Shown: positions 33,524 through 46,871, numbered from the stretch's first letter. The stretch: DNA of 47,048 nucleotides from a bacterium (GCA_043718245.1 JAYSWB010000029.1:1-47048), one strand, 5' to 3'. Made by a program: numbers and translations. Notes: a model not told the origin generated them from the letters alone.

Positions 33524-34117
33524 ATGATAAAACCATATGCCGAGCGGAGTCACGAAAAGATGCGAGAAGTATTGATGTCACCTGATGCTGTAGGACCTGC
33601 GGTACATTATTATATGATCCGAGGGGGGACAGACAAAGAGAACATAACTGTATGGGAGTCAGGAACAGTCGGTGGGGAATACATCAAAGCCTACGGACAT
33701 TATCATGTGGGTGACATCAGCGAGACCTATCATATTCTACGAGGTGAGGGGATTTTGATGTTACAGAAGAGAAAAACTGATGATGAAATGGAGATTTGTG
33801 TGGCTGTTTATGCTAAAGCGGGGGATGTGCTTCCAATTCCAACAGGTATAGGACACTTGATGGTAAACACTGGTAAAGTCTGGCTCGCGACGGCAGATGA
33901 CAGTCCGGTAAACTTTGCAGATGTTGATCCGGTCAGCCTTCCAGGGCACGCAGATTATGAAACGGTCCGAAAAATGAAAGGTTTTGCATATTATGTAATG
34001 GAAAGTGATGGTAAACCGGCTTATATTAAGAATCCAAGCTACAAAAATACCCCTGAGATAAAGGAGATGACGGCAGATGAATACAGGGCTATTATGGTAG
34101 ATAAGGGTTCTATATAG
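33524..34117 (+). CDS. cupin-type glucose-6-phosphate isomerase-like protein
   Basis: TVGGEYIKAYGHYH....SETYHILRGEG resembles the archaeal-type cupin PGI metal-binding motif. Sits in a sugar-phosphate/glucan context. Confidence 0.55.
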   Translation: MIKPYAERSHEKMREVLMSPDAVGPAVHYYMIRGGTDKENITVWESGTVGGEYIKAYGHYHVGDISETYHILRGEGILMLQKRKTDDEMEICVAVYAKAGDVLPIPTGIGHLMVNTGKVWLATADDSPVNFADVDPVSLPGHADYETVRKMKGFAYYVMESDGKPAYIKNPSYKNTPEIKEMTADEYRAIMVDKGSI

Positions 34118-34134
34118 TATACTTTTTAAGCAAT

Positions 34135-35637
34135 ATGAAACTCTCCCTAAAATCAAAAGGTCTAAAGATTCTCTTTTTAGGTTGTGAAGCTGCTCCTTTT
34201 ATCAAAATCGGCGGATTGGGCGAGGTTATGTATTCGCTACCAAAAGCACTTCGTGAGCTTGGTCATGATGCTAGGATTATGATTCCGTATTTTAGCTCTA
34301 TTCCAAAAGAAAAATTTCCAATGGAGATGATTATGGAAGGAATTTCTATTCCAAGTGGTAGGGAGGAGCATCCAATTTCTTGTAACGTAAAAGTATCTAC
34401 GGCAGAAGGCTCTACTGTACCAAGTTATTTTTTGGAAAACATGGAATATTTCGAACAAAGAGGAAATGTATATGGATATGATGATGACGGCGCGCGATTC
34501 GCAGTTTTTTCGCGCGCCGCTTTGGAATTCGTAAAACGAAATGAAGATTGGAGGCCTGATATTATAGTTTCCGCTGATTGGCAGGGAGGGCTTACTCCAA
34601 ACTTGATGAAGACTGAATATGCAAATGATCCAATCATTTCAAAGATCGCCTCGGTGTTTTGTATACACAATCTACACTTTCAAGGAATGTTTGATCATCG
34701 TTTCACAAATGAAATGGATTATGACGATGGCCGATCGGTTATTCCTCCAATCGATGATCCGCGCATGTTGAAAATCAACTTTATGCGTAGGGGAATTCTT
34801 TTTGCAGACATTGTAAATACGGTTTCTCCAAATTATGCTCAGGAAATTACCACCCCTGATTACGGTGAACTTTTAGATGGGCTTTTGTCAGAGCGTCGAT
34901 CTCGTCTATTTGGAATTTTAAATGGAATAGATTATACAAGTAATGATCCTACAGCGAATCCATATGTTGAATACAAGTATTCAGTAAGAAACCTAAACGA
35001 CAGACAAAAAAATAAAGCAGTTTTACAAAGAAAGTTTAACTTGGAAGAAGAACCGAATACACCTTTGGTTGCGATTGTTTCAAGACTTGCAGAACAAAAA
35101 GGAATGGATTTGGTTATAGAGACTATAGAGCCTCTTCTTGAAAACTTTAAGTTCCAACTAGTTGTCCTTGGAAATGGAGATTCTAAGTATCTTAGTTTTT
35201 TTGCGGATCTTGAGAAAAAATATTCACAAGTCGCAACACACTTGTCATTTGATACGACATTGCCACATGTGGTGCACTCTGGAGCTGATTTAATTCTTGT
35301 ACCTTCTAAATTTGAACCATCAGGTCTTACCCAAATGGAAGCAATGCATTACGGCGCACTACCGCTCGTTCGAAAAACAGGAGGTCTTGCAGACAGTGTT
35401 GTTGATTACAATGAAAACGCCAAGGATGGAGCAGGATTTGTTTTTGAAAAGTATGATAAGTACGCCTTTTTTGGTGCCTTCGTTCGGGCGCTTGAGACTT
35501 ATAAACATCCAAAGGAATGGGTGACTTTGCAAAAGCATGCCATGACCACTGATTTTTCTTGGAAAAAATCTGCCAAAGAATACGTAGAATTATTCAAAAA
35601 GGCGATGGCATTTAATAGTGAGGAAAAAAACCAATAA
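34135..35637 (+). CDS. glgA: glycogen/starch synthase (GT5)
   Basis: KIGGLGEV (K-x-G-G-L) near the N-terminus and SKFEPSGLTQMEAM..G near the C-terminus. Confidence 0.85.
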   Translation: MKLSLKSKGLKILFLGCEAAPFIKIGGLGEVMYSLPKALRELGHDARIMIPYFSSIPKEKFPMEMIMEGISIPSGREEHPISCNVKVSTAEGSTVPSYFLENMEYFEQRGNVYGYDDDGARFAVFSRAALEFVKRNEDWRPDIIVSADWQGGLTPNLMKTEYANDPIISKIASVFCIHNLHFQGMFDHRFTNEMDYDDGRSVIPPIDDPRMLKINFMRRGILFADIVNTVSPNYAQEITTPDYGELLDGLLSERRSRLFGILNGIDYTSNDPTANPYVEYKYSVRNLNDRQKNKAVLQRKFNLEEEPNTPLVAIVSRLAEQKGMDLVIETIEPLLENFKFQLVVLGNGDSKYLSFFADLEKKYSQVATHLSFDTTLPHVVHSGADLILVPSKFEPSGLTQMEAMHYGALPLVRKTGGLADSVVDYNENAKDGAGFVFEKYDKYAFFGAFVRALETYKHPKEWVTLQKHAMTTDFSWKKSAKEYVELFKKAMAFNSEEKNQ

Positions 35638-35641
35638 ATAT

Positions 35642-37132
35642 ATGTACTGGGCGAACTTTTTACACATATATCAGCCGGCGGATCAGCAAGCTGACGTCTT
35701 GGAAGCGGTTGTTACCCAATGTTATAGACCATTGTTGACGCATTTGCGGGATAATAAAAATGTTCGTCTGACTTTGAATATTAATGGGTCGCTGATGGAA
35801 CTTTTTGATAAATATGGATATCACGATTTAATAGAAATGATGAAGGAAATGGGGAAGGATGGAAGAATTGAATTTACCGGTTCGGCAAAATACCACGCTT
35901 TTTTGCCATTTTTAGAGAAAGAGGAAATTATTCGTCAGATAAAAATGAATGATGAAACGAATCGCAAATATTTGGGGGATTCATATAATCCAAAAGGCTT
36001 TTTCCCGCCAGAGATGGGTTTCAAAGAAGAGCTGGTGCCAATTATTGAAAGCCTTGGATTCAAATGGATTATTCTTGATGAAATTTCCGCATATGGCGAA
36101 CCAGAGCGTGTTGATTACACCAAAATTTACAAAATAAAAAACAGTAATTTAAAAGTTTTTTTCCGTGAGCGCCGATTGAGTAACTTGATTATGGGAGCGG
36201 TGGTTCGTTCAGCAGAAACTTTGGCTGATGCCATGAAAAGTGACCTTGAAAGTAAAAGGTATATCCTGACAGGAATGGATGGGGAAACTTTTGGACACCA
36301 CAGACCAGGGCTAGAAAAAATGCTTTTTGAAGTTTTTAAAACTCCGCAATTTAAATTGGCGAATATTTCTGACTTGATAGATTTGTATAGTGATACAGAG
36401 GAAATTATGCCCGTTGCGTCTACTTGGGCAAGCAGCAAGCAAGACATAGAAAATGGTATCCAGTTTATTTCATGGGCCGATCCAGAGAATGAACTTCATA
36501 CAATGCAAGGAAAATTGTTCGAGATGGTTTTAGCCGAGGTTAAAAAAATGGACAATAGATTACCTGAATATGAAGAAGTTCGAAAAAAAATGGATAAAGC
36601 CGAAGCCTCAGACCATTTTTGGTGGGCTTCGGCCAAACCTTGGTGGAGTATGGAAATGATCGAGGACGGTGCGTATCGATTACTTGATACTGCAAGAAGT
36701 ATTCCAAATATTGGTAAAGATATTTCTGATAAGGCCAGCGAATTATACGAAAAAATAGTCTCTACTGGTTTTCATTGGCAAAGATCAGGAAAAATTCGCG
36801 AAATGTCACGTGCCCAGTACGCTCTCCAGAGAATTCCTTTTAGAGACAGAGTAGTGGGGCAAGGTTACACTGAAGGTGTCTATGAAGCTTTCATTGATAT
36901 GATGAAAAGTCTTGAAAAAGAAGCTGCGGCTACTGGAGAATACGAGAAGGCTACTTTGTGGAGAGATGCCGTTTTTAAACTTGAAAATAAACTTGATATT
37001 TATGACACTGTGAGTGCGGTAGATCTCCTTCGAATTCAAATGCCAAGTGAGAAAATAGAAGAGACTCTTAAAAAATACAAAGAAGAGTACACGCAGATTC
37101 GAGGCGGGCAACCCGAACAGCGCGGAGCTTAA
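35642..37132 (+). CDS. glycoside hydrolase family 57 protein
   Basis: N-terminal FLHIYQP and GMDGETFGHH resemble GH57 catalytic-region motifs. Lies between glgA and the phosphorylase gene. The ATG at 35642 is preferred over 35618. Confidence 0.7.
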   Translation: MYWANFLHIYQPADQQADVLEAVVTQCYRPLLTHLRDNKNVRLTLNINGSLMELFDKYGYHDLIEMMKEMGKDGRIEFTGSAKYHAFLPFLEKEEIIRQIKMNDETNRKYLGDSYNPKGFFPPEMGFKEELVPIIESLGFKWIILDEISAYGEPERVDYTKIYKIKNSNLKVFFRERRLSNLIMGAVVRSAETLADAMKSDLESKRYILTGMDGETFGHHRPGLEKMLFEVFKTPQFKLANISDLIDLYSDTEEIMPVASTWASSKQDIENGIQFISWADPENELHTMQGKLFEMVLAEVKKMDNRLPEYEEVRKKMDKAEASDHFWWASAKPWWSMEMIEDGAYRLLDTARSIPNIGKDISDKASELYEKIVSTGFHWQRSGKIREMSRAQYALQRIPFRDRVVGQGYTEGVYEAFIDMMKSLEKEAAATGEYEKATLWRDAVFKLENKLDIYDTVSAVDLLRIQMPSEKIEETLKKYKEEYTQIRGGQPEQRGA

Positions 37133-37137
37133 ACAAA

Positions 37138-38754
37138 ATGAAAGACTGGCTTAAACAATTTAGAGAAACCGAACAATACACCGCTTTACAAAAAGATCCT
37201 GTAGCGTATTTCTCAACTGAATATGCAATTTTTAATGATCGGAGGTTTTACGCTGGAGGTCTTGGGGTTTTGGCTGGAGATTACTTTTTAGAGATGGCAG
37301 AACAGGAATTTCCTGTGATATGTATGGGACTTTTTTATCATAATAATAATGGAAAAGCGGAAGATTTTGGATTAACAAAAGTCTTGGACAAAGAGGGAAA
37401 GGTTTTAACTATTTCACTCCCACTCGGTGATCGTGACGTTCTAATTCAGGCATGGGAACTTAAAAAGAATAATGCAAGAATGATTTTAATGGATACAAAT
37501 ATTGAAGGGAATCACACTGAAGACAAAGGGATTACTAATGTTTTGTATGATGAAAATCACGATGTGCGGTTGATGCAGGAAATCCTTCTTGGGATTGGGG
37601 GGATGAGGCTCCTTCGGGCACTTGAAATTCATCCTTCAGTTTTTCACATGAATGAAGGACACTCGGCATTTTTAGCGTTGGAATTGATACGTCATGAAAT
37701 GCGAAGACACAGTCTGACTTTTGCAAAAGCTTATCAATACGCCCGTCAACACATTGTATTTACAAACCATACCCTTGTCCCAGCAGGGCAGGAGATTTTT
37801 GCAGATGATAAGGTCAATTTTATGTTGAGAAAGTTTGCTGAAGAGATTGAAGTCACATTGGGTGTGATAATTGCATTAGGAAAAATTCCAGGACAAGAAT
37901 TATTTTCAATGACTAATCTTGCGTTGAACATGTCTTCCAAGGTTAACGCAGTTTCGGTCCTACATTCGATCAAAGCGGGCATTATGTGGAAAGATTTTAC
38001 TATCGAGGTTGTTACAAATGGAATAAATGTAAGGCGATGGGACGCGGTAGAGGAAATGGAAATTTGGCAGAAACATCAGGAAAACAAGAAAAAACTAGTT
38101 GAAGAAATTAAAAAGCAAACCGGGAAAGTTTTTGATGAGGACGTCTTGCTTCTCGGGTGGGGACGTCGCATGGTGGAATACAAGCAGCCACTGGCAATAC
38201 TTTCAGATGTAAAAAAGTTTAAGGAAATTGCATTAAGAGAAGGGAAGAAAGTGCAGATTGTTTTTTCAGGACCAGCGTGGGCTGACAATCCGTATTTAAA
38301 GACTTTGCTACAGTATGCAGAAAATGAATTAAAAGATATTTTAGTATTTTTACCAAATTATGATTTAGAGCTTTCAAAAATGTTGGTTGCAGGCTGTGAC
38401 GTGTGGCTCAATACTCCGATGATTGGAAGAGAAGCCTGTGGAACAAGCGGGATGAAGGCATGCTTGAATGGAACTTTGCCACTATCAACAAGAGATGGTT
38501 GGGTGTACGAGACGAATCTTTCACAAATCGGATGGGTGATTGGAGAGGATAGAAATTTAAATGAAGAACTTTTGAAAATTTTAGAGAATGAAATTGTGCC
38601 CGCATATTATGGTCCGAAAGAAGATTGGGTTTCGAGGATGAAGAATTCTAGGGAGTTGATTTTGGAAAAGTTCAGCGCGACGAGGATGCTGGTTGAATAT
38701 ATCGACAAGTTTTATTTACCGGTGTTGAAGAATGAGGTGCATACTGTAAAGTAG
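37138..38754 (+). CDS. glgP: alpha-glucan (glycogen) phosphorylase, GT35 short form
   Basis: VAYFS.EYA, GGLGVLAGD, HMNEGHSAF, FTNHT.VPAG and EACGTSGMKA..NG. Confidence 0.85.
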   Translation: MKDWLKQFRETEQYTALQKDPVAYFSTEYAIFNDRRFYAGGLGVLAGDYFLEMAEQEFPVICMGLFYHNNNGKAEDFGLTKVLDKEGKVLTISLPLGDRDVLIQAWELKKNNARMILMDTNIEGNHTEDKGITNVLYDENHDVRLMQEILLGIGGMRLLRALEIHPSVFHMNEGHSAFLALELIRHEMRRHSLTFAKAYQYARQHIVFTNHTLVPAGQEIFADDKVNFMLRKFAEEIEVTLGVIIALGKIPGQELFSMTNLALNMSSKVNAVSVLHSIKAGIMWKDFTIEVVTNGINVRRWDAVEEMEIWQKHQENKKKLVEEIKKQTGKVFDEDVLLLGWGRRMVEYKQPLAILSDVKKFKEIALREGKKVQIVFSGPAWADNPYLKTLLQYAENELKDILVFLPNYDLELSKMLVAGCDVWLNTPMIGREACGTSGMKACLNGTLPLSTRDGWVYETNLSQIGWVIGEDRNLNEELLKILENEIVPAYYGPKEDWVSRMKNSRELILEKFSATRMLVEYIDKFYLPVLKNEVHTVK

Positions 38755-38790
38755 GTCTGTAAATCGATACAGTTATTTTGTAGTCATTAA

Positions 38791-38821
38791 AAAAACCGCC
38801 GCCTTTACGCGGAGGTTTTTT
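38791..38821 (+). terminator. rho-independent terminator
   Basis: CCGCCGC-ctttac-GCGGAGG (one mismatch) followed by T6. Confidence 0.6.
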
Positions 38822-38840
38822 CTTTCCTAATCTTTTCTAA

Positions 38841-39227
38841 CTAAAGTCCGTTAGTTCCAGTCATCAACATCACTCCACTGTGTGGAGAAATGTCACTGGC
38901 ATTCATCGCAGCTGCTGCAGAACCTGCATTTATAGTTTTAACATTTCCATAAATATTAATGTACTGATATGTTCCGGCAGTAGCGGGTGTAGATACAGGA
39001 TAGTTCACAGGAGTAGTTACAGTATTATTCACAGAGCCTGAGACAAGCATCACTCCACTGTGTGAGGCGATGTCGGCTACAGTCATTGCCTGAAAAGCAT
39101 TATCTGCTGTTACAACTGAGACATTTCCGCTAGTGTTCACATATTGATATGTTGCAGCTAGTGAAAGTGTCGGTGCCAGAGTCATGATTGCACCCATCAA
39201 AGTACCCGTAATTAGTAGTTTTTTCAT
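38841..39227 (-). CDS. secreted protein with two tandem ~45-aa repeats
   Basis: Signal-peptide-like N-terminus. The repeats are ATYQYVNTSGNVSVVTADNAFQAMTVADIASHSGVMLVSG and GTYQYINIYGNVKTINAGSAAAAMNASDISPHSGVMLMTG. Confidence 0.5.
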   Translation of the reverse strand: MKKLLITGTLMGAIMTLAPTLSLAATYQYVNTSGNVSVVTADNAFQAMTVADIASHSGVMLVSGSVNNTVTTPVNYPVSTPATAGTYQYINIYGNVKTINAGSAAAAMNASDISPHSGVMLMTGTNGL

Positions 39228-39418
39228 AGTATTGTAAGGTTGTTTTAATAATTTGACCTTCAGTACTAAAGCCGACCGAGGTGAGTTTGTATGACAAGGG
39301 GGGTTGGGTTTTTTTGGGGGTGCCGTCGTAGAGGAAGTTAGAACTATATTTGAGAAAAGGAATGATGCAACGATCTACATTCCTGACATGCAAAGTATAG
39401 CAGTTTTAGGGTAATTTT

Positions 39419-39490
39419 GGCTCTTTTTGGCCTAATCTGGCTTAGCGTTAGGGTGAAAAAGGGCAAATTAGGGCAAATAGGTGCAAAAAA
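39419..39490. repeat. phased 10-bp tandem units (GG-start, A/T-tract end)
   Basis: GGCTCTTTTT GGCCTAATCT GGCTTAGCGT ta GGGTGAAAAA GGGCAAATTA GGGCAAATAG GTGCAAAAAA. Confidence 0.7.
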
Positions 39491-39502
39491 GAACACTTCT
39501 CA

Positions 39503-41476
39503 CTAGCTTTCATCAATGGCTTTGATAATTTCGAACACCCTTCCCACTTCCTTTTCCTTGGCTAAGTAGTCAGCGTACATCTTATGCGCATTTTGAATTA
39601 GCTCCTGATAAAGCACAACTCTGATGTTCTTCACGGCCAGGGACTTACTTGATTCATCTCTTTTTTGTGCATTTTTCCAATCGGAGAGCTTCTTTCCAAC
39701 AATACACACAACCTCAACTGGTTCTTTAATATTGGCGGCATCAAGGATTTCCGAGAGCTTGTCTCTATACTTTTCTACCTGTCCGAGTAACTCTGAAGTA
39801 CTGACCGTTCTGTCTGGTCTCTTTAATTCAATGATGATATGTTTACCGGCTGAATTCTTATATCGGATATCGACACGACCATCTTTCTCATCACCTTTTG
39901 CCTTGGCATTCAACTTATTGAAAGCTGTCTTCACCTGCTGTTCAAGATATGGCGCTTCTGTAGCTCGGTCCCAAGAGGGATCAAGTAGCCAAAGATTATC
40001 GTAGAGATGTTGCTGGACCACTTTTTCCAGAGCATTATCTTCAACTTTCTCCTGAAGTGCCTTAATAACAACCACCCTGGCTTTTGTGATTTGATGATAT
40101 AGTGTTGCTTCAATGTCATTATGCTCACTAAAAATCTGTGTGAACAAAGCCACATTTGAAGGGTTCATATTTTCGAGCGCATCAAGATTTTCTCTGTAGT
40201 TCAAAGTCTCAAATGCAAGAATCGCGTGCTTGAACAACGTCTTTCGCTGATCGTCTGATTCAAGTGTGAGCTGATTGATTTTTCCAAATAGTGACTCGGC
40301 TTTTTTCTTTTTATCTCCTTTCAGACCGGAGAACCATTGTTTTATAACCTTATTTTCTGTCGCTTTTTTAACACCCTCTTTATTTCTTAGGTCAGTCCAC
40401 TTTGATTGCACGTACTTCAACTCCCCATTGATGAAAGCCAGCAATTCCTTATATCTTGGATCATCGTTTATTATGCTTTGTCTGCTTGTCGTTGCGATAT
40501 CTTCCTCATCATCAGTATCCAAAAAATCAGCGTGGATTTCTCCAATTATATACTTAGTGTACATTCCACCTTCAGCAAAACTTTCCATGATGTCTTCCTG
40601 AGCAAGCTTTCCACGAACCATCACTACGATCTTATTAAGATTGTCCTCACCATCCTTCAAATCACCTGATGAATTGACGGTACCAATCCATCCAGTCACC
40701 TTTACTTTTTTACCCCTGATTGTTAGCTCACCATCTCTTTTTTCCTTATGTTCTACTTTTTCAGAACAGTGATCGGCATACTGTTTGCTGCTTGAACCGA
40801 AATACCAAATATATTGGAGCTTATGAAAATAATCCCGATCAGTGATTTTCACTTCAGAAGAATTAATGAGAACAGAAAACTTATTCTCACTTCCAAGAAC
40901 ACTAAAGCGTCTTGCCACTCTCTTTTTTAGAGCTTCGTCCGTACCTTCTGTCACATTCCTCTTGAGCTCAGAGATCGTTATCCTTGTACCATTCTTTGTA
41001 AGAGATATATTTTTAGGATCTATAGGCACAGGATGATACGTTCCCATACCTCCGGAAGCTTCCAACTGCTTCTCGATTTCGCTTGCGATCAAAACTAGAC
41101 CGTTCTTCTCACCCTCCTTGTAGGTTTCAATTTCAATTTTATTAGCTATAGAAAACAGAGATAGTTTTCCGATACCCTTTCGACCCATAACAGGACGCTT
41201 ATATTTTTTGGTAACTGACATACCAGCCTTCCTTCGATCGTATCCAACAGTAAGGTATTTATCATTGATGTCATCAAGAGACATGCCATGTCCGTCGTCC
41301 TGAATCAATATTTTTTCTTTTTCTGTGGAAATCTCAACCTTAGTCGCATCGGCATCCCAAGCATTCGCAACAACCTCGGACAAAACCGCAGGGACGTTAC
41401 TATACAATTTTATGCCTAAGTGATTGAGTACATTTAGGCTAATTTTTATTTGATATTTTTTGTCGTTCTTTTCCAT
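39503..41476 (-). CDS. GHKL (HATPase_c, MORC/MutL-like) ATPase fused to a PD-(D/E)xK-like nuclease domain
   Basis: N box EVVANAWDADA, G1 box IQDDGHGMS, G2 box GRKGIGKLSLFS. C-terminal GRVDIRY...KHIIIELKRPD gives a D...E-x-K arrangement. Confidence 0.7.
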   Translation of the reverse strand: MEKNDKKYQIKISLNVLNHLGIKLYSNVPAVLSEVVANAWDADATKVEISTEKEKILIQDDGHGMSLDDINDKYLTVGYDRRKAGMSVTKKYKRPVMGRKGIGKLSLFSIANKIEIETYKEGEKNGLVLIASEIEKQLEASGGMGTYHPVPIDPKNISLTKNGTRITISELKRNVTEGTDEALKKRVARRFSVLGSENKFSVLINSSEVKITDRDYFHKLQYIWYFGSSSKQYADHCSEKVEHKEKRDGELTIRGKKVKVTGWIGTVNSSGDLKDGEDNLNKIVVMVRGKLAQEDIMESFAEGGMYTKYIIGEIHADFLDTDDEEDIATTSRQSIINDDPRYKELLAFINGELKYVQSKWTDLRNKEGVKKATENKVIKQWFSGLKGDKKKKAESLFGKINQLTLESDDQRKTLFKHAILAFETLNYRENLDALENMNPSNVALFTQIFSEHNDIEATLYHQITKARVVVIKALQEKVEDNALEKVVQQHLYDNLWLLDPSWDRATEAPYLEQQVKTAFNKLNAKAKGDEKDGRVDIRYKNSAGKHIIIELKRPDRTVSTSELLGQVEKYRDKLSEILDAANIKEPVEVVCIVGKKLSDWKNAQKRDESSKSLAVKNIRVVLYQELIQNAHKMYADYLAKEKEVGRVFEIIKAIDES

Positions 41477-42533
41477 TTTTCTGTAGATGCTGTTTTATAC
41501 TTTGACCTATAACTTCTCCCAATCTAACAGGAACTGCATTACCAATAAATTTTGCCACTTGAGCAACAATAATTGGTTCGTTTGAAGGGACAAACTGGTA
41601 GTCCTTGGGGAAGGTTTGGAATATAGCCGCTTCACGAAGACTTATGGCTCTGTTCTGCTTTGGATGACCGAATCTACCATTTCCAAGACCTACGCATTGA
41701 GTCGTCATGGTAGGGGCAGGCTCATCCCACCTCATTCGCCCATATACAGTACTGCTGTAGGTCTTTCCTGATTCTTTCTTGTGGCACTCTAACACCAAAT
41801 CGTCAGACCAGCTATCTGAATTGCCTCCATCATGAGGAGTAGCTTTAATACGTCTCAAATTAACTGGAGCGAGCTTTCGTGATCGATGTAGAAGATCTTT
41901 TTTGCTTGTCTCTCCATCCTTGATTGGTTCAAGGTCTTTAATCACATCTCAAACAGTGACTCGATTATCCTTATGGGTTCTTTTAATCAAAGAAATCTCA
42001 CCCAGCTTGGAAGCAAGTAGAACTAATCTTCGGCGTCTTTGTGGTACTCCAAACTCTGACACATCAACAACTTCATATTTATATTTATATCCATTATCTT
42101 CCAAGGTCTTAAGAAAGTTTGCAAAAACAGGATATTTATTAGTGTCAGCTAGGCCGCTTACGTTTTCCATAGAAACAACATCCGGTTGAGTCTGCGCAAT
42201 AAGCTGGGCAAACTTTCCTAATGGCTCAAGTTGTTTTTGTGTAACTTCTTTTAAATTTAATTTCGAGAAGGGCTGACAGGGTGCGCAACCTGCAAGCACT
42301 CGAATTGAATCTTTTTTTGAACCAAATAATTCGTTCACCTGATCAGCAGTAACCTTGAGAATATCTTTGTCGATAAATTTTGTTTTGTTGTTGTACTCGT
42401 ATCCAAATTTACACGACGAATCATTATCGATGCCAGCCACAACATCCAAACCTTCTTTTATGAGACCGTGCGTCAAACCGCCAATACCGCAGAATAAATC
42501 AATGACTTTAATTTTTTTACGATTTGAGCTCAT
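41439..42533 (-). pseudogene. DNA (cytosine-5) methyltransferase interrupted by one in-frame TGA (41949..41951)
   Basis: The upstream part has motifs I FCGIGG, IV PCQPFS, VI ENV and VIII QRRRR. The downstream part, in the same frame, has RAISLREAAIFQTFP (IX) and GNAVP (X). The ATG at 42533 is preferred over the GTG at 42542. Confidence 0.8.
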
Positions 42534-42561
42534 TAGTAACACTATTATAATCTGAAAACAC

Positions 42562-43683
42562 TCAATTAGCGATATTTAAATTATTTTTCTTCTCGTGGAC
42601 CAACTCCAGTAGATCTTCTTCACGTTCATATCCTCGTAACCTACCGCTCAACATCCCTAACCGGTAATCGACCCCATCACTCATGAGCTTCCAGTTGGTG
42701 CCATTGAGAGTCGTTTTAATTGACTTCTTCAAATCAGACATGCTGTCATATTCTTTTCGGTCCTTAGAGTCATGAATTGAGAAAGAAACAATAATATCCT
42801 TCTTGGTTTCTGGCGTTTGAAAATGAAGCTTGATATAACCTCGAGCTTCTAAAGCAGGACTAAGCAATTCCTCAACTTCAATTATTTTCAACTTCTTCAA
42901 CTTTGCTACTTTTTCATAAGATTCTTTATTTACTTCTTTTTCTTCAATCTTTTTCATTGTCTCAATAGCAGCTTTCATATGATATTTGTAGTCTACATAT
43001 TTCTGACCTTCTTCTTGAGAAAGACAGAAGCGTGCCCGATCTCTTGCAAAATGAGGATCAACCTTATCTTTCGTCACTGATAATTCGAATTCGCTTTTTT
43101 TGCTAAACCCACATTTCAAACATTTGTCGGTAGATATAATTTTATTCCTTATCTTCTTTTCAGGAGTATGTTCCAGTTCAGCGCCACATTTAGGACAAGG
43201 GCTCGACCTAGACTTCCATTCTTCTCCATCACTATAGAAAGCTCTGCGCGGCACATGTGTAAGCGGACAATCATAGAAAAATAGGACCCGATCTTTATCC
43301 TTGTCACCCATCCACAAATGCTTTGACTCAACAAACATGAGTCGGCCACAAGTGAGGCAGGTTATATTTTCTGGAGCTTTTGCTGACTCAAAGATTTCAT
43401 CTCTTTCCTTGTCTCTGTCCATCCATTTACGAATAGTCTCCTCTTTACTAGCATATCGTTCACCCTTGGTGAAATACATGAATAGATTGTTGGCGAGCAT
43501 AACAGCACTCCTTTTTTCCTTTTTAGATAAATCGTCTTTATCATCTTCAGGTAATTCATGATCCCGAGATTCTAAACGACGGCACTCTTCAACAGTATGT
43601 TTATCGTATAAGTCTAAATAATATTGGTCAGATTTTAAGTATTTTGTTTTCTCTGTTTGGTCCATATCAATGATAATGACCAT
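42562..43683 (-). CDS. hypothetical Zn-ribbon protein
   Basis: About 373 aa from the ATG at 43683. Contains CLTCG, CPKCG and CLKCG pairs. Otherwise charged/helical, with no family recognised. Confidence 0.45.
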   Translation of the reverse strand: MVIIIDMDQTEKTKYLKSDQYYLDLYDKHTVEECRRLESRDHELPEDDKDDLSKKEKRSAVMLANNLFMYFTKGERYASKEETIRKWMDRDKERDEIFESAKAPENITCLTCGRLMFVESKHLWMGDKDKDRVLFFYDCPLTHVPRRAFYSDGEEWKSRSSPCPKCGAELEHTPEKKIRNKIISTDKCLKCGFSKKSEFELSVTKDKVDPHFARDRARFCLSQEEGQKYVDYKYHMKAAIETMKKIEEKEVNKESYEKVAKLKKLKIIEVEELLSPALEARGYIKLHFQTPETKKDIIVSFSIHDSKDRKEYDSMSDLKKSIKTTLNGTNWKLMSDGVDYRLGMLSGRLRGYEREEDLLELVHEKKNNLNIAN

Positions 43684-43690
43684 TTTATAA

Positions 43691-44482
43691 TTATTCTTTA
43701 CTACTCTTCCAAGCAAGCTCGAATATCATTCTCATCATATTGTGAATGAGTGGGTCCTCAATGATAAGTCCGGTGATATTCTCATCAGACATGTTAACGA
43801 TTGAGACCTTATTGTCTCCGTAAATAGTAATCTCTCCTTTAAAAGGAAACTGTTTTGCAGGAACATAATGCATGACCGGAATAATCTTTTTCTTAAATCC
43901 ATCGTACACACGAGAGTTAAACGTTCTATTTTCAGGAGTATCAGGAATAATACCTCGTGTGGTTATTCCCTTTCGTTCCTTTGTGCGACGATACTTCTCA
44001 AAAAACTCTTTGGGCAAGAAATACTCCAAATGGTTTGCATTTGATATCGCAACCATTTCATAAGGCTTTTCAGTTAAGATATGGTCCTCAAGAACTGTAA
44101 GGATGCCGTCAACACCTTCAAAATAACGTACGCGCGCCTTATTGGCGACCATATTATAAAGACCCTCTAGATCAGGTAGAAGTTGCTCTGTGCGTTCATA
44201 TTGGTCATTAGCCATGGTTATACGCGATTTGGCATGGCGAAGGAGACGGTCGGGGCGTTCAACCGTATAAAAGAGCTTGTTTTTCTTTTCAATCTCATTT
44301 ACTAGCCCTTTCACAGATAAATCCATCAAAATCGCATACACAGTGCTTCTGTTGAGCTTTATCTCTTCTGCGATTTTTGAGGGGTAAGCACCCCCTTTAT
44401 CGATTAAATAGCCATATATTAAGGCCTCTTTTGGAGACAAACCCACACGTTCAAGCTTTTGATTTAGTGAAGTATTGTACAT
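43691..44482 (-). CDS. TrmB-family winged-helix transcriptional regulator
   Basis: LSPKEALIYGYLIDKGGAYPSKIAEEIKLNRSTVYAILMDLSVKGLV is a TrmB-type N-terminal wHTH. A C-terminal domain of about 170 aa follows. Confidence 0.7.
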   Translation of the reverse strand: MYNTSLNQKLERVGLSPKEALIYGYLIDKGGAYPSKIAEEIKLNRSTVYAILMDLSVKGLVNEIEKKNKLFYTVERPDRLLRHAKSRITMANDQYERTEQLLPDLEGLYNMVANKARVRYFEGVDGILTVLEDHILTEKPYEMVAISNANHLEYFLPKEFFEKYRRTKERKGITTRGIIPDTPENRTFNSRVYDGFKKKIIPVMHYVPAKQFPFKGEITIYGDNKVSIVNMSDENITGLIIEDPLIHNMMRMIFELAWKSSKE

Positions 44483-44564
44483 GTAGATATGTTAACAAAT
44501 AACTGAACTTTTGTCAATTAAAACTAACAAAACTACTCATATACTAATAATACCTTTATATAAA

Positions 44565-44577
44565 GCCATATTATGGC
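44565..44577. promoter_or_regulatory. 13-bp perfect palindrome in the divergent promoter region
   Basis: GCCATA-T-TATGGC, lying between the TrmB-like gene (minus) and the desulfurase fusion gene (plus). Confidence 0.3.
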
Positions 44578-44636
44578 CAGATTATGTTAGTACTTTACCT
44601 ATAATATTGCAATGTAGTGTAATGTATGGGGTAATT

Positions 44637-46871
44637 ATGAATGATATAATCCGTAAAAAATTCAAGGTGTTTCGCCAATCCAACTATGTATATTTGGATT
44701 CGGCTGCAATGACCCCTGCCCCAACATCAGTAGTAAACGCTGTTCAGCAAGCGTTGGATTTTAGAGGTAACCCTAATAGAAGCGCGCATCCACTAGCTCA
44801 AAGAAGTGGCCGAATTCACGATGAATCACGAAAGATCGTAGCGGACTTTATTGGTGCGGAATCAGATGAAATTGTTTTTACAAAAAACACCACAGACGGC
44901 ATTAACCTTGCTGTAGAAGGACTATCGCATCTTTTTGAAGATGGTGATGTAATCGTACTATCGACGATGGAGCATCATTCAAATATGCTCCCTTATTTGA
45001 AACTCCGAAGACGTGGAGTCCATACTAAATTTGTACCCACAGATGAACGATGTATTAAACCAGAAGACGTAGTAAAGGCCCTCACGCCGCAAACAAAGAT
45101 TGTTGCAGTTTCTCATTGTTCAAATGTACTTGGAACAATTAATGATGTAATTGCTATTGGAAAAGCAGTCAAAGAATATAACAAAGAGATTATTTACATC
45201 ATAGATGGCGCACAAGCTGTCGCTCACATCCCTGTGAATGTAAAAGAGATTGATTGCGATATGTATGCTTTTTCTGGACATAAGATGTATGGCCCCGACG
45301 GTATTGGTGTACTTTATATTAAAAAGGCAATTCATCATCTCCTCTCACCCGCAAGAGCCGGTGGTGGTACAGTCAATAACGTTGCTATTACTCGTGGAGC
45401 TACACACGATATTATTTCTCCTGATTATGATGGTACTCTTTCGATACTTGAAGGTGGTACACCAAATGTTTCTGGCGCAGCTGGACTAGCTGAAGCTATT
45501 AAATTCTTAAAAAGTATTGGAATGGATAAGATCCGAGAGCATGAGATTAAATTAACCCAGGAGCTTATTGATAGACTCGATAAAATAAATCATCTCATTA
45601 TTCATGGTCCCAAGGATGCTCACAAAAGAGTTGGGCTCATTTCACTTGCCATTGATGGTATATCACCAAAAGAGCTAGGGACATATCTTGCAGGTAATGA
45701 TATTTGCGTACGATATGGTTCACATTGTGCCTTTCCGTTAACAAACGAATTGGGACATGAGACTGTACGACTCAGTATCGGGGTCTATAACACCGAAGCT
45801 GATATTAACCTTGCGGCGGAAGAGATTGAGAGCTTTATTGCAGAGAAAAATGGAGAATCAAAAAACAAGAATCTTCCATTGATTAAAAATATCTCTGTAC
45901 TTAAAAAAGAAGTAGCCATTAACGATATTGCACAAATAGAGAAAAGGGTTAGAGAATTCTCAAAGCAAAGTGATTCTGAAATTCTTATCATGGGTGGCCA
46001 CTTTCTTGGAATTCCAGATGTAAAGGAAAACACTTTTTATCCAAGTATTGCACCGATGATCCCAGAGCGATTACATGGTGTTTTAGAAGAATTTGGTATG
46101 ACAGAATTTCCCTTAGTCACTTTTGATTTGGCTGCTCAGGTGGTTTCAAGACTTAAAAATGACAAAATTAAAGCAAAGTTGTTTATTATCGCTAATGACA
46201 CCACCGGTATCAATGAATTGCGTCTTTCATCTGCAAATAAAGATAAGAAGACCGCTGACCAGTATCGTCAAGAATTACTAGCAAATTTTGCAGGAGAAAT
46301 TGGTATTCCAAATGCGTACATGGACGTACTCAAAAAGTACGATCTCTCCTTAAATGATGTGGTTAAATTTGGTGATAATTACTTTGCTCGAGAAACTATT
46401 CTAAGAAAGAATTTTAAATCTTTTGTCTCAAAAAATAAGAAATTCTTTCATGGGCTTATTGATTATAAAGCTGACGACGAAAGTATTGATGTATCAATTA
46501 AGATTCTCGATGACAATGATGTAAAAACATGTACCTTCGATACTTTCCACTCAAAAACTGGAGGAACTTTCTGTGTTGTTGAAGTTGCACAGGCTTTGGC
46601 AGAATTATTTGGAAAATCAGAAAAGGTAAGTTTTGATTACCTAAATCAAAAGGTGCTTAATCCTCAAATTAAATCTGCAAATAATGCGCTGGTTATGTTT
46701 ACTCCTGCTATGTGTGATGGAGCTGTCACCCGAGGTGGTGAGCTGTACATGAAACTATTCCAACGTGAACATGCTGAGTCTGATTTTATGTTCATAAATT
46801 TACCATTTGGACCTCACACCAAACAATCGCTAAAAGAAGGTGTACTCGCTACTGAAATTATCGGGACATAA
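44637..46871 (+). CDS. class V aminotransferase / cysteine desulfurase (SufS/NifS-like) fused to an unknown ~340-aa C-terminal domain
   Basis: YLDSAA, TKNTT.GIN, SGHKMYGP.GIGVLY (PLP Lys) and RYGSHCAFP (persulfide Cys loop). An unrecognised domain follows residue ~440. The ATG at 44637 is preferred. Confidence 0.75.
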   Translation: MNDIIRKKFKVFRQSNYVYLDSAAMTPAPTSVVNAVQQALDFRGNPNRSAHPLAQRSGRIHDESRKIVADFIGAESDEIVFTKNTTDGINLAVEGLSHLFEDGDVIVLSTMEHHSNMLPYLKLRRRGVHTKFVPTDERCIKPEDVVKALTPQTKIVAVSHCSNVLGTINDVIAIGKAVKEYNKEIIYIIDGAQAVAHIPVNVKEIDCDMYAFSGHKMYGPDGIGVLYIKKAIHHLLSPARAGGGTVNNVAITRGATHDIISPDYDGTLSILEGGTPNVSGAAGLAEAIKFLKSIGMDKIREHEIKLTQELIDRLDKINHLIIHGPKDAHKRVGLISLAIDGISPKELGTYLAGNDICVRYGSHCAFPLTNELGHETVRLSIGVYNTEADINLAAEEIESFIAEKNGESKNKNLPLIKNISVLKKEVAINDIAQIEKRVREFSKQSDSEILIMGGHFLGIPDVKENTFYPSIAPMIPERLHGVLEEFGMTEFPLVTFDLAAQVVSRLKNDKIKAKLFIIANDTTGINELRLSSANKDKKTADQYRQELLANFAGEIGIPNAYMDVLKKYDLSLNDVVKFGDNYFARETILRKNFKSFVSKNKKFFHGLIDYKADDESIDVSIKILDDNDVKTCTFDTFHSKTGGTFCVVEVAQALAELFGKSEKVSFDYLNQKVLNPQIKSANNALVMFTPAMCDGAVTRGGELYMKLFQREHAESDFMFINLPFGPHTKQSLKEGVLATEIIGT

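Follow-up and report, generated by a model that had tools for sequence, protein, structure and literature searches.

An HgiDII/BbrUII-type cassette for Type II restriction-modification in a Patescibacteria genome, beside two unrelated conserved genes

The closest described systems to the locus analysed here are HgiDII from Herpetosiphon giganteus Hpa2 and BbrUII from Bifidobacterium breve UCC2003, in which an N-terminal GHKL ATPase domain is joined to a C-terminal domain specific to the family and a C5 cytosine methylase is encoded immediately upstream. For R.HgiDII the N-terminal domain has been assigned to GHKL and the C-terminal domain left unassigned (Orlowski and Bujnicki, 2008; PMC2441816). 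A second described group, paraMORC3, consists of a GHKL+S5 module fused to an E-D-ExK endonuclease domain and occurs mainly with cytosine methylases in mobile restriction-modification (R-M) operons (Iyer et al., 2008; PMC2292703). No relative of these GHKL-fused restriction enzymes has a solved structure, and we found no report in the searchable literature on the role of the GHKL ATPase in enzymes of the HgiDII/BbrUII type. We examined a 47,048-nt stretch of bacterial DNA (GCA_043718245.1 JAYSWB010000029.1:1-47048; the window, whose numbering is used throughout) from a genome that probably belongs to the Saccharibacteria, within the Patescibacteria. The locus is an HgiDII/BbrUII-type Type II R-M cassette lying beside two unrelated conserved genes, all four genes being on the minus strand. 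We give a probability of roughly 0.88 to the reading in which the interval marked as the cassette in Table 1, with one gene for a methylase (M) and one for a restriction enzyme (R), is a Type II R-M cassette of two genes that belongs to this family and moves horizontally.

The evidence on family membership comes first from R. The 657-amino-acid (aa) protein scored 807 bits, with a cut-off of 550, in a search with the curated equivalog model NF050001.1 of NCBIfam ('BbrUII/HgiDII family restriction enzyme'), residues 8–654 aligning to positions 1–659 of the 659 in the model. It also matched PADLOC REase_II (3.3e-93) and phrog_6203 (2.4e-176). The NF050001 match is decisive for the identity of the protein, which by homology is a Type II restriction enzyme of the HgiDII/BbrUII family, with more than 7000 clusters at E ≤1e-10 among the candidates scored. 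Likeness to HgiDII and BbrUII was measured through this model. Relative to the prototypes, the window copy stands apart in its host, a Patescibacteria (probably Saccharibacteria) genome, and in the nonsense codon that interrupts its methylase.

The gene upstream of R, which overlaps it, encodes the methylase. Its translation matches Pfam DNA_methylase (PF00145; 1.3e-61, model positions 1–323 of 324) in an alignment that runs across the stop codon, as well as PADLOC MTase_II (5.9e-87) and TIGR00675 dcm (2.6e-41). Motifs I (FCGIGG), IV (PC), VI (ENV), VIII (QRRRR), IX and X (GNAVP) follow one another in order, with the variable region between VIII and IX.

This pair of genes is conserved as a unit. 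A C5 methylase gene (353–364 aa) lies immediately upstream of R, and overlaps it, in 6/6 other loci, which differ widely in R identity to the window copy and in their flanks: L093 (99%; LMWPc, the Zn-ribbon gene and a serine recombinase), L001 (98%; metal-transport-like genes), L090 (84%; glycosyltransferases), L091 (57%; a toxin-antitoxin island), L092 (55%; an S24 repressor and small genes) and L002 (49%; an integrase/primase island in a metagenome-assembled genome (MAG) of the Pseudomonadota). Haloarchaeal plasmids carry the same pair, annotated as 'ATP-binding protein' and 'DNA cytosine methyltransferase'. The comparison with L001, a Candidatus Saccharibacteria MAG, delimits the unit. The two sequences are 92% identical over window positions 39318–42573 only, that is, from ~40 nt upstream of the methylase ATG (a TATAAT box included) to ~185 nt past the R stop, and the genes flanking this interval in L001 are unrelated. 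Because the identity to L001 is confined to the M+R interval, we take the unit to be a mobile M+R cassette, and the limits 39318–42573 are drawn from that identity. A conserved regulator beside M or R, of the sort found in controller-regulated Type II R-M systems, was not found across the six other M-R loci; L091 alone has an HTH_3 gene upstream, which is unrelated. The locus resembles the published description of paraMORC3 (PMC2292703) in its GHKL and transducer domains, in the acidic D/ExK signature at the C-terminus, in the association with a cytosine methylase and in lateral mobility. Many paraMORC3 genes are standalone, however, whereas R genes of the window family have a methylase partner in every locus examined.

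Table 1. Positions of the genes, domains and other features of the locus in the window.
Feature	Position	Strand	Remarks
TrmB-like winged helix-turn-helix gene	43691-44482	(-)	263 aa; Pfam TrmB PF01978, 5.6e-12
Zn-ribbon gene	42562-43683	(-)	373 aa; alternative start TTG 43716; below every Pfam threshold
Mobile R-M cassette of two genes (M and R, with the distal ~190-nt element)	39313-42573	(-)	92% nucleotide identity to L001
C5 cytosine methylase gene	41439-42533	(-)	364 codons; single in-frame TGA
In-frame TGA nonsense codon in methylase	41946-41948	(-)	proximal variable region, ~26 residues past motif VIII
Restriction enzyme gene	39503-41476	(-)	657 aa; apparently intact
GHKL ATPase + transducer module	40457-41455	(-)	~residues 8-340; HATPase_c_3 PF13589 at residues 30-139, 3.4e-20
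C-terminal nuclease-like domain (predicted)	39506-39952	(-)	~residues 509-657; compact alpha/beta in AlphaFold2 model; D536, E550, K552
~190-nt non-coding element	39313-39498	(-)	directly after R stop; 80-92% conserved in four related loci

A sequence-only reading of the window had proposed that these four genes form one restriction operon of an uncharacterised kind, with its own regulator. Its description of the DNA holds up well. All four minus-strand open reading frames (ORFs) were reproduced at the same coordinates and spacing, with a 7-nt gap between the TrmB-like and Zn-ribbon genes, a 28-nt gap between the Zn-ribbon and methylase genes and a 38-nt overlap between methylase and restriction enzyme. 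The in-frame TGA to which it referred is there too. Its three domain calls agree with Pfam, the methylase motifs it listed are all visible in the translation, and the Bergerat N, G1 and G2 boxes and D...ExK residues that it pointed out in the 657-aa protein are invariant in 47 homologues. The three CxxC pairs that it reported in the 373-aa Zn-ribbon protein (C109/C112, C163/C166 and C188/C191) are likewise invariant, in 51 homologues, and its statement that this protein has no recognisable family was borne out by the lack of any Pfam match above threshold, generic zinc-ribbon similarity being all that was seen. The proposed restriction module stood in part: the C5 methylase and the GHKL ATPase-nuclease-like fusion do make up such a module, but the four-gene operon, the dedicated regulator and the uncharacterised kind had to be given up. 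R is a full-length member of NF050001, PADLOC labels the two genes REase_II and MTase_II, and the M+R pair maps onto an already named system. With that pair in a named family and its two neighbours unrelated to it, the locus does not amount to a new four-gene defence system. Both outcomes, a neighbourhood that is not kept among homologues and a match to a named system, are among those that the sequence-only reading had itself listed as counting against it.

The 47 homologues of R keep N38, D60/G62/G64, G98–K104, D536, E550 and K552 invariant. From 47 sequences, AlphaFold2 gave a model whose predicted local distance difference test score (pLDDT) averages 78.8. The GHKL and transducer module of this model gave Foldseek matches to the N-terminal modules of MORC2, MORC3/4, TRAP1/Hsp90 and MutL (E ~1e-12 to 1e-10, over ~400–460 columns). 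Structurally, nothing matches the first ~430 residues better than the N-terminal modules of eukaryotic MORC, MutL and Hsp90, which have the Bergerat-fold motifs in common with them, but the identity is 12–19% and none of these proteins has the C-terminal nuclease domain predicted for the window enzyme. The likeness is one of ATPase engines only. Residues ~340–480 are modelled, with lower confidence, as a long helical region. In the C-terminal domain that follows, the predicted order of elements is alpha-beta-beta-alpha-beta-alpha-beta, with D536 on strand 534–542 and E550/K552 on the one that follows (545–552); as modelled, this placement is the arrangement expected of a PD-(D/E)xK core. The profile matches of the domain are weak or below threshold, NucS_C at 0.039 and Mrr_cat at 0.074, and SduA_C at 1.7e-5 in homologue P0206. 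From the model, a PD-(D/E)xK nuclease fold is likely, and we put it no more firmly because the sequence support lies below threshold and the profile of the domain matched no sequence in the PDB.

In the mechanism that we propose, the C5 methylase would mark the host DNA. The restriction enzyme would be a single chain in which the GHKL ATPase and transducer are connected by the long helical linker to a C-terminal PD-(D/E)xK-type nuclease with D536, E550 and K552 as its motif residues, and this nuclease would cut unmethylated sites. The GHKL module would probably dimerise on ATP binding, clamp or loop the DNA and so license cleavage.

The recognition site of the window methylase is, by homology, probably GTCGAC. 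PMC5867850 presents M.HgiDII as the 5-methylcytosine (m5C) methylase for GTCGAC and M.BbrUII as its homologue, and for archaeal homologues there are REBASE-derived predictions of GTCGAC/m5C (PMC11033074). M.BbrUII is called an adenine (N6-adenine) methylase in PMC5829577, which conflicts with the C5 methylase of PMC5867850; both are secondary sources on BbrUII. GTCGAC is absent from the 47-kb window (0 observed versus 2.8–4.6 expected), which lends weak support to the site. GTCGAC avoidance was rejected as a test of specificity, being suggestive in the window and overall not significant.

Several observations weigh against the assignments made so far. The nuclease fold is argued from the motif, the predicted topology and the sub-threshold hidden Markov model (HMM) matches; the family profile of the C-terminal domain, compared with PDB sequences, gave zero matches even at E up to 10, and the Foldseek search with the full-length model was dominated by the N-terminal GHKL module. 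As to the site, the depletion of GTCGAC in the window has P ~0.06 under a stricter model, which is not significant, the pooled carrier loci show a weak deficit (2 observed versus 6.1–8.5 expected), and specificity can drift within R-M families. An intact R beside a truncated M is in principle unstable. Finally, the Zn-ribbon gene accompanies M+R in L093 at 92% identity, and a functional link between them is possible in this lineage. The last two points lead to the two rival explanations that fare best.

The first concerns the stop codon in the methylase. The codon at this site is CGA (Arg) in L001 and also specifies Arg in L002, and the methylase orthologues are intact, at 364 aa, in L001 (98.6% identical) and in L093. 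Judged against its near-identical orthologues, the TGA is a C-to-T nonsense substitution. TGA terminates 9/40 long ORFs of the window, that of the Zn-ribbon gene included, so the interruption is to be read as a real stop under code 11 and not as recoding; an alternative code in which TGA specifies Trp or Gly is ruled out by this count and by the Arg/CGA of the orthologues. A GTG at 41943–41945, 3 nt downstream of the stop, opens a distal ORF of 168 aa, with no Shine-Dalgarno sequence evident before it. The break is in the proximal variable region, where C5 methylases tolerate being cut in two: M.AquI and M.EcoHK31I are natural two-chain C5 methylases, and fragments of M.SssI cut there complement each other without overlap (PMC3404938). 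As in M.AquI and M.EcoHK31I, the window gene breaks after motif VIII and before the distal variable region, and a further ORF begins beside the stop. Two things set it apart from them: a point mutation, seen against the intact orthologues, makes the split, and no Shine-Dalgarno sequence is evident. The methylase copy may be inactive, may owe its stop to mis-assembly or may function as a split enzyme.

With a nonsense change in M and an apparently intact R, the system would be in one of three states: in decay, miscalled at a single base, or running on a split methylase that restarts at the GTG 3 nt past the stop. If it is decaying, the R-M genes of the window would be a remnant in which the methylase is a true pseudogene and restriction is silenced, tolerated because targets are scarce or already selected against. 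The TGA is a genuine stop in this genome, the close relatives L001 and L093 keep intact methylases with CGA at the site, and the window has no GTCGAC, all of which a remnant would explain. R, however, is full length and retains every invariant residue, which would not be expected if M had been lost long ago; the break coincides with the place at which C5 methylases can be split, and a restart codon follows 3 nt on; and a single-base consensus error or a minority allele in the metagenome assembly may have produced the TGA. We regard a decaying remnant as a serious possibility, though one that we lean against, and keep to a mobile R-M cassette as the preferred reading.

The second rival concerns the Zn-ribbon protein, which is the only truly uncharacterised component of the locus and is not a conserved partner of the HgiDII/BbrUII R-M family: its gene is present in 1/6 other M-R loci (L093 only). 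The protein belongs to a family for which a word-indexed search gave 285 homologues and a full HMMER scan 824 representatives at 50% identity, nearly all of 340–375 aa; those with a named source come from Patescibacteria lineages, and in the data searched the family is almost confined to that group. In Pfam, NCBIfam, PADLOC and PHROGs no match passed the threshold, and the rare longer members of the family have no informative fused domain. In the predicted structure (pLDDT 87.5) a helical hairpin at the N-terminus is followed by a double zinc-ribbon beta domain, then by a helical segment and finally by an alpha/beta domain at the C-terminus; Foldseek gave no match to it at E <0.001 in the PDB or BFVD. 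The profile Lar_restr_allev (PF14354) reached 21.1 bits on a 30-residue stretch of one zinc ribbon, the cut-off being 28.6, and 15/51 family members match it, all below threshold. An identity as a Lar restriction-alleviation protein was rejected, as the scores stay below the Pfam cut-off and reflect generic zinc-ribbon similarity. Two copies of the gene (L030 and L047) lie 19 kb apart on one contig.

We surveyed the neighbourhoods of Zn-ribbon genes in 80 metagenomic loci, clustering all neighbours. The immediate neighbours are unique in most loci (52/76 upstream, 56/75 downstream). Within the wider neighbourhoods, a ParB_N-N6_N4 methylase occurs in 32 loci, a TerS-like helix-turn-helix protein in 28, a terminase large subunit in 13 plus 3, a large serine recombinase in 13 and an S24 repressor in 12, and type I HsdM/S/R genes are also found. 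After dereplication, 52 loci had at least 6 kb of flank; a DNA methylase lies within 8 kb in 37/52, and at least one of a methylase, terminase, serine recombinase, type I R-M or GHKL gene is present in 41/52. This enrichment is descriptive. A module of serine recombinase, TerL, TerS and ParB-methylase followed by the Zn-ribbon gene recurs, and is also the setting of the single match to the Zn-ribbon protein in the 2.9 million contigs of IMG/VR. Its genes lie on the same strand (L003–L089, L098), with no capsid or tail genes visible within the flanks examined. This module may be a satellite-like element or a defective prophage of Patescibacteria.

Pairs of m5C methylase and GHKL genes adjoin Zn-ribbon genes in three independent cases of different subfamilies: the window, L016 (5507–8220) and L083 (37–2188). 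The L016 GHKL protein, which like that of L083 is restriction-enzyme-like and encoded with a C5 methylase, has a Hypoth_Ymh C-terminal domain as in the R.NmeAIP group, and the L083 protein has a cysteine-rich unassigned C-terminus. In L005 a NotI-like enzyme and a D12 methylase are encoded directly upstream of the Zn-ribbon gene.

From these neighbourhoods one could argue that in Patescibacteria the Zn-ribbon protein serves mobile methylase and R-M modules as a functional accessory. It would then be a controller, a restriction-alleviation or anti-restriction protein, or a factor that sets the direction of recombination or the target for cassettes inserting at the 3' end of its gene. The counts of methylases and other such markers, the three adjoining m5C-methylase and GHKL pairs, the NotI-like enzyme of L005 and the sub-threshold Lar_restr_allev matches all speak for this, as does a cargo junction inside the last ~12 codons of the gene, described below. 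The immediate neighbours are mostly unique, however, 5/6 HgiDII-type M-R loci have no Zn-ribbon gene, and L003 has cargo other than R-M. The counts have no genome-wide background, and Patescibacteria genomes are rich in R-M systems; the Lar matches are generic, and no structural match was found in the PDB or BFVD. An accessory role is unlikely on this evidence, and the two-gene cassette remains our preferred unit.

The junctions themselves were located by comparing related loci. L093 is 92% identical to the window over 39318–43626, an interval that covers the Zn-ribbon gene, M, R and the distal ~190-nt element; upstream of the Zn-ribbon gene it has LMWPc and PPDK genes in place of TrmB. L003 and L004 have the same LMWPc context as L093 and a Zn-ribbon gene at 86% nucleotide identity, and between this gene and the ~190-nt element they carry P4_cII-like, Beta_protein, M78 peptidase and HigB genes. 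When the window and L093 are compared with L003, the left junction of the cargo falls in the final ~12 codons of the Zn-ribbon gene. On the right, the junction is the end of the ~190-nt element, whose copies (L001 7975–8169, L093 7975–8169, L003 8348–8543 and another in L004) all end sharply at ...CTACGACGGCACCC (window 39317), beyond which each locus differs. The last 67 nt of the element are also present in L094 (6387–6453), ~600 nt after TrmB, and in L093 the element contains the last ~32 codons, at the 3' end, of a 556-aa large serine recombinase gene. The element has no Rfam match (a scan of 38700–44700 gave chance-level matches alone); it occurs once in the window and in IMG/VR not at all.

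The ~190-nt element is a candidate att-like junction or cassette end, and the interval from the Zn-ribbon gene to the element looks like a cargo slot or recombination hotspot, with a mechanism that we infer. A broader proposal is that the Zn-ribbon family is tied to mobile DNA-modification modules and that the 3' end of its gene, together with the ~190-nt element, delimits a slot that exchanges R-M cargo (the window and L093) for toxin or abortive-type cargo (L003), possibly via the large serine recombinase. We hold this proposal to be doubtful and offer it as a tentative one.

The TrmB-like gene belongs to the surroundings of the cassette. Its family has 282 Patescibacteria homologues of ~263 aa that are 50–95% identical. 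In L094 and L095 an 86% identical TrmB-like protein is encoded divergently from the Aminotran_5 fusion gene that is its partner in the window as well, and homology to the window stops exactly at the TrmB stop codon, with no Zn-ribbon, M or R gene after it. The TrmB-like gene was found in 0/6 other M-R loci and in 0/87 other Zn-ribbon loci. A role as regulator of the system, as the sequence-only reading had it, was ruled out by this synteny; the TrmB-like gene is a resident chromosomal gene beside the insertion point and not a regulator of the cassette. Another member of the family, in L096, has a large serine recombinase 454 nt downstream.

The aminotransferase fusion gene of the window (44511–46871, plus strand) encodes a 786-aa protein with a class-V aminotransferase domain at residues 60–433, followed by ~350 residues without a Pfam match; its counterpart in L094 and L095 (762 aa) keeps the divergent arrangement with the TrmB-like gene. 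Just past the cassette junction, positions 38841–39227 (minus strand) encode a predicted secreted protein of 128 aa without a Pfam match, which is an internal tandem duplication with TYQY[VI]N..GNV...SHSGVML..G present twice. Downstream of the insertion, a glycogen/starch cluster at 33524–38754 (plus strand), with genes for a cupin-type glucose-6-phosphate isomerase, a starch synthase, a GH57 protein and an alpha-glucan phosphorylase-like protein, is ordinary host context.

That a TrmB regulator, a Zn-ribbon subunit, a methylase and a GHKL nuclease together make up a single novel operon for ATP-dependent restriction or abortive infection is very improbable and already contradicted by the neighbourhood data: the genes are tightly packed on the same strand, the sole strong promoter-like site on that strand sits upstream of the TrmB-like gene, and the Zn-ribbon, M and R block is common to the window and L093, but only M and R are conserved together (6/6 other loci), the four-gene neighbourhood is not kept in any of the 6 M-R or 87 Zn-ribbon loci, the TrmB-like gene and its aminotransferase partner occur in L094 and L095 without the remaining three, M+R moves alone in L001 with a TATAAT box of its own, and R is a member of a named family.

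As its core is a named Type II R-M family, the locus adds one host lineage, the Patescibacteria, and the movement of the cassette between genomes, and no more than that. The family of GHKL-fused restriction enzymes is nevertheless relevant to how MORC-type ATPases arose, and because it has neither a solved structure nor, in the searchable literature, a reported ATPase function, a tractable member would offer a route to the role of the ATPase. An intact R beside a methylase broken at a split-tolerant site is a natural test of R-M decay or of split tolerance. The Zn-ribbon family and the ~190-nt element mark a variable type of Patescibacteria locus, rich in mobile elements and unannotated in current databases. 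If the cargo-slot reading of the Zn-ribbon gene is true, what this locus type would hold is an unrecognised cargo-exchange hotspot or an accessory factor of Patescibacteria mobile elements, and not a new restriction enzyme.

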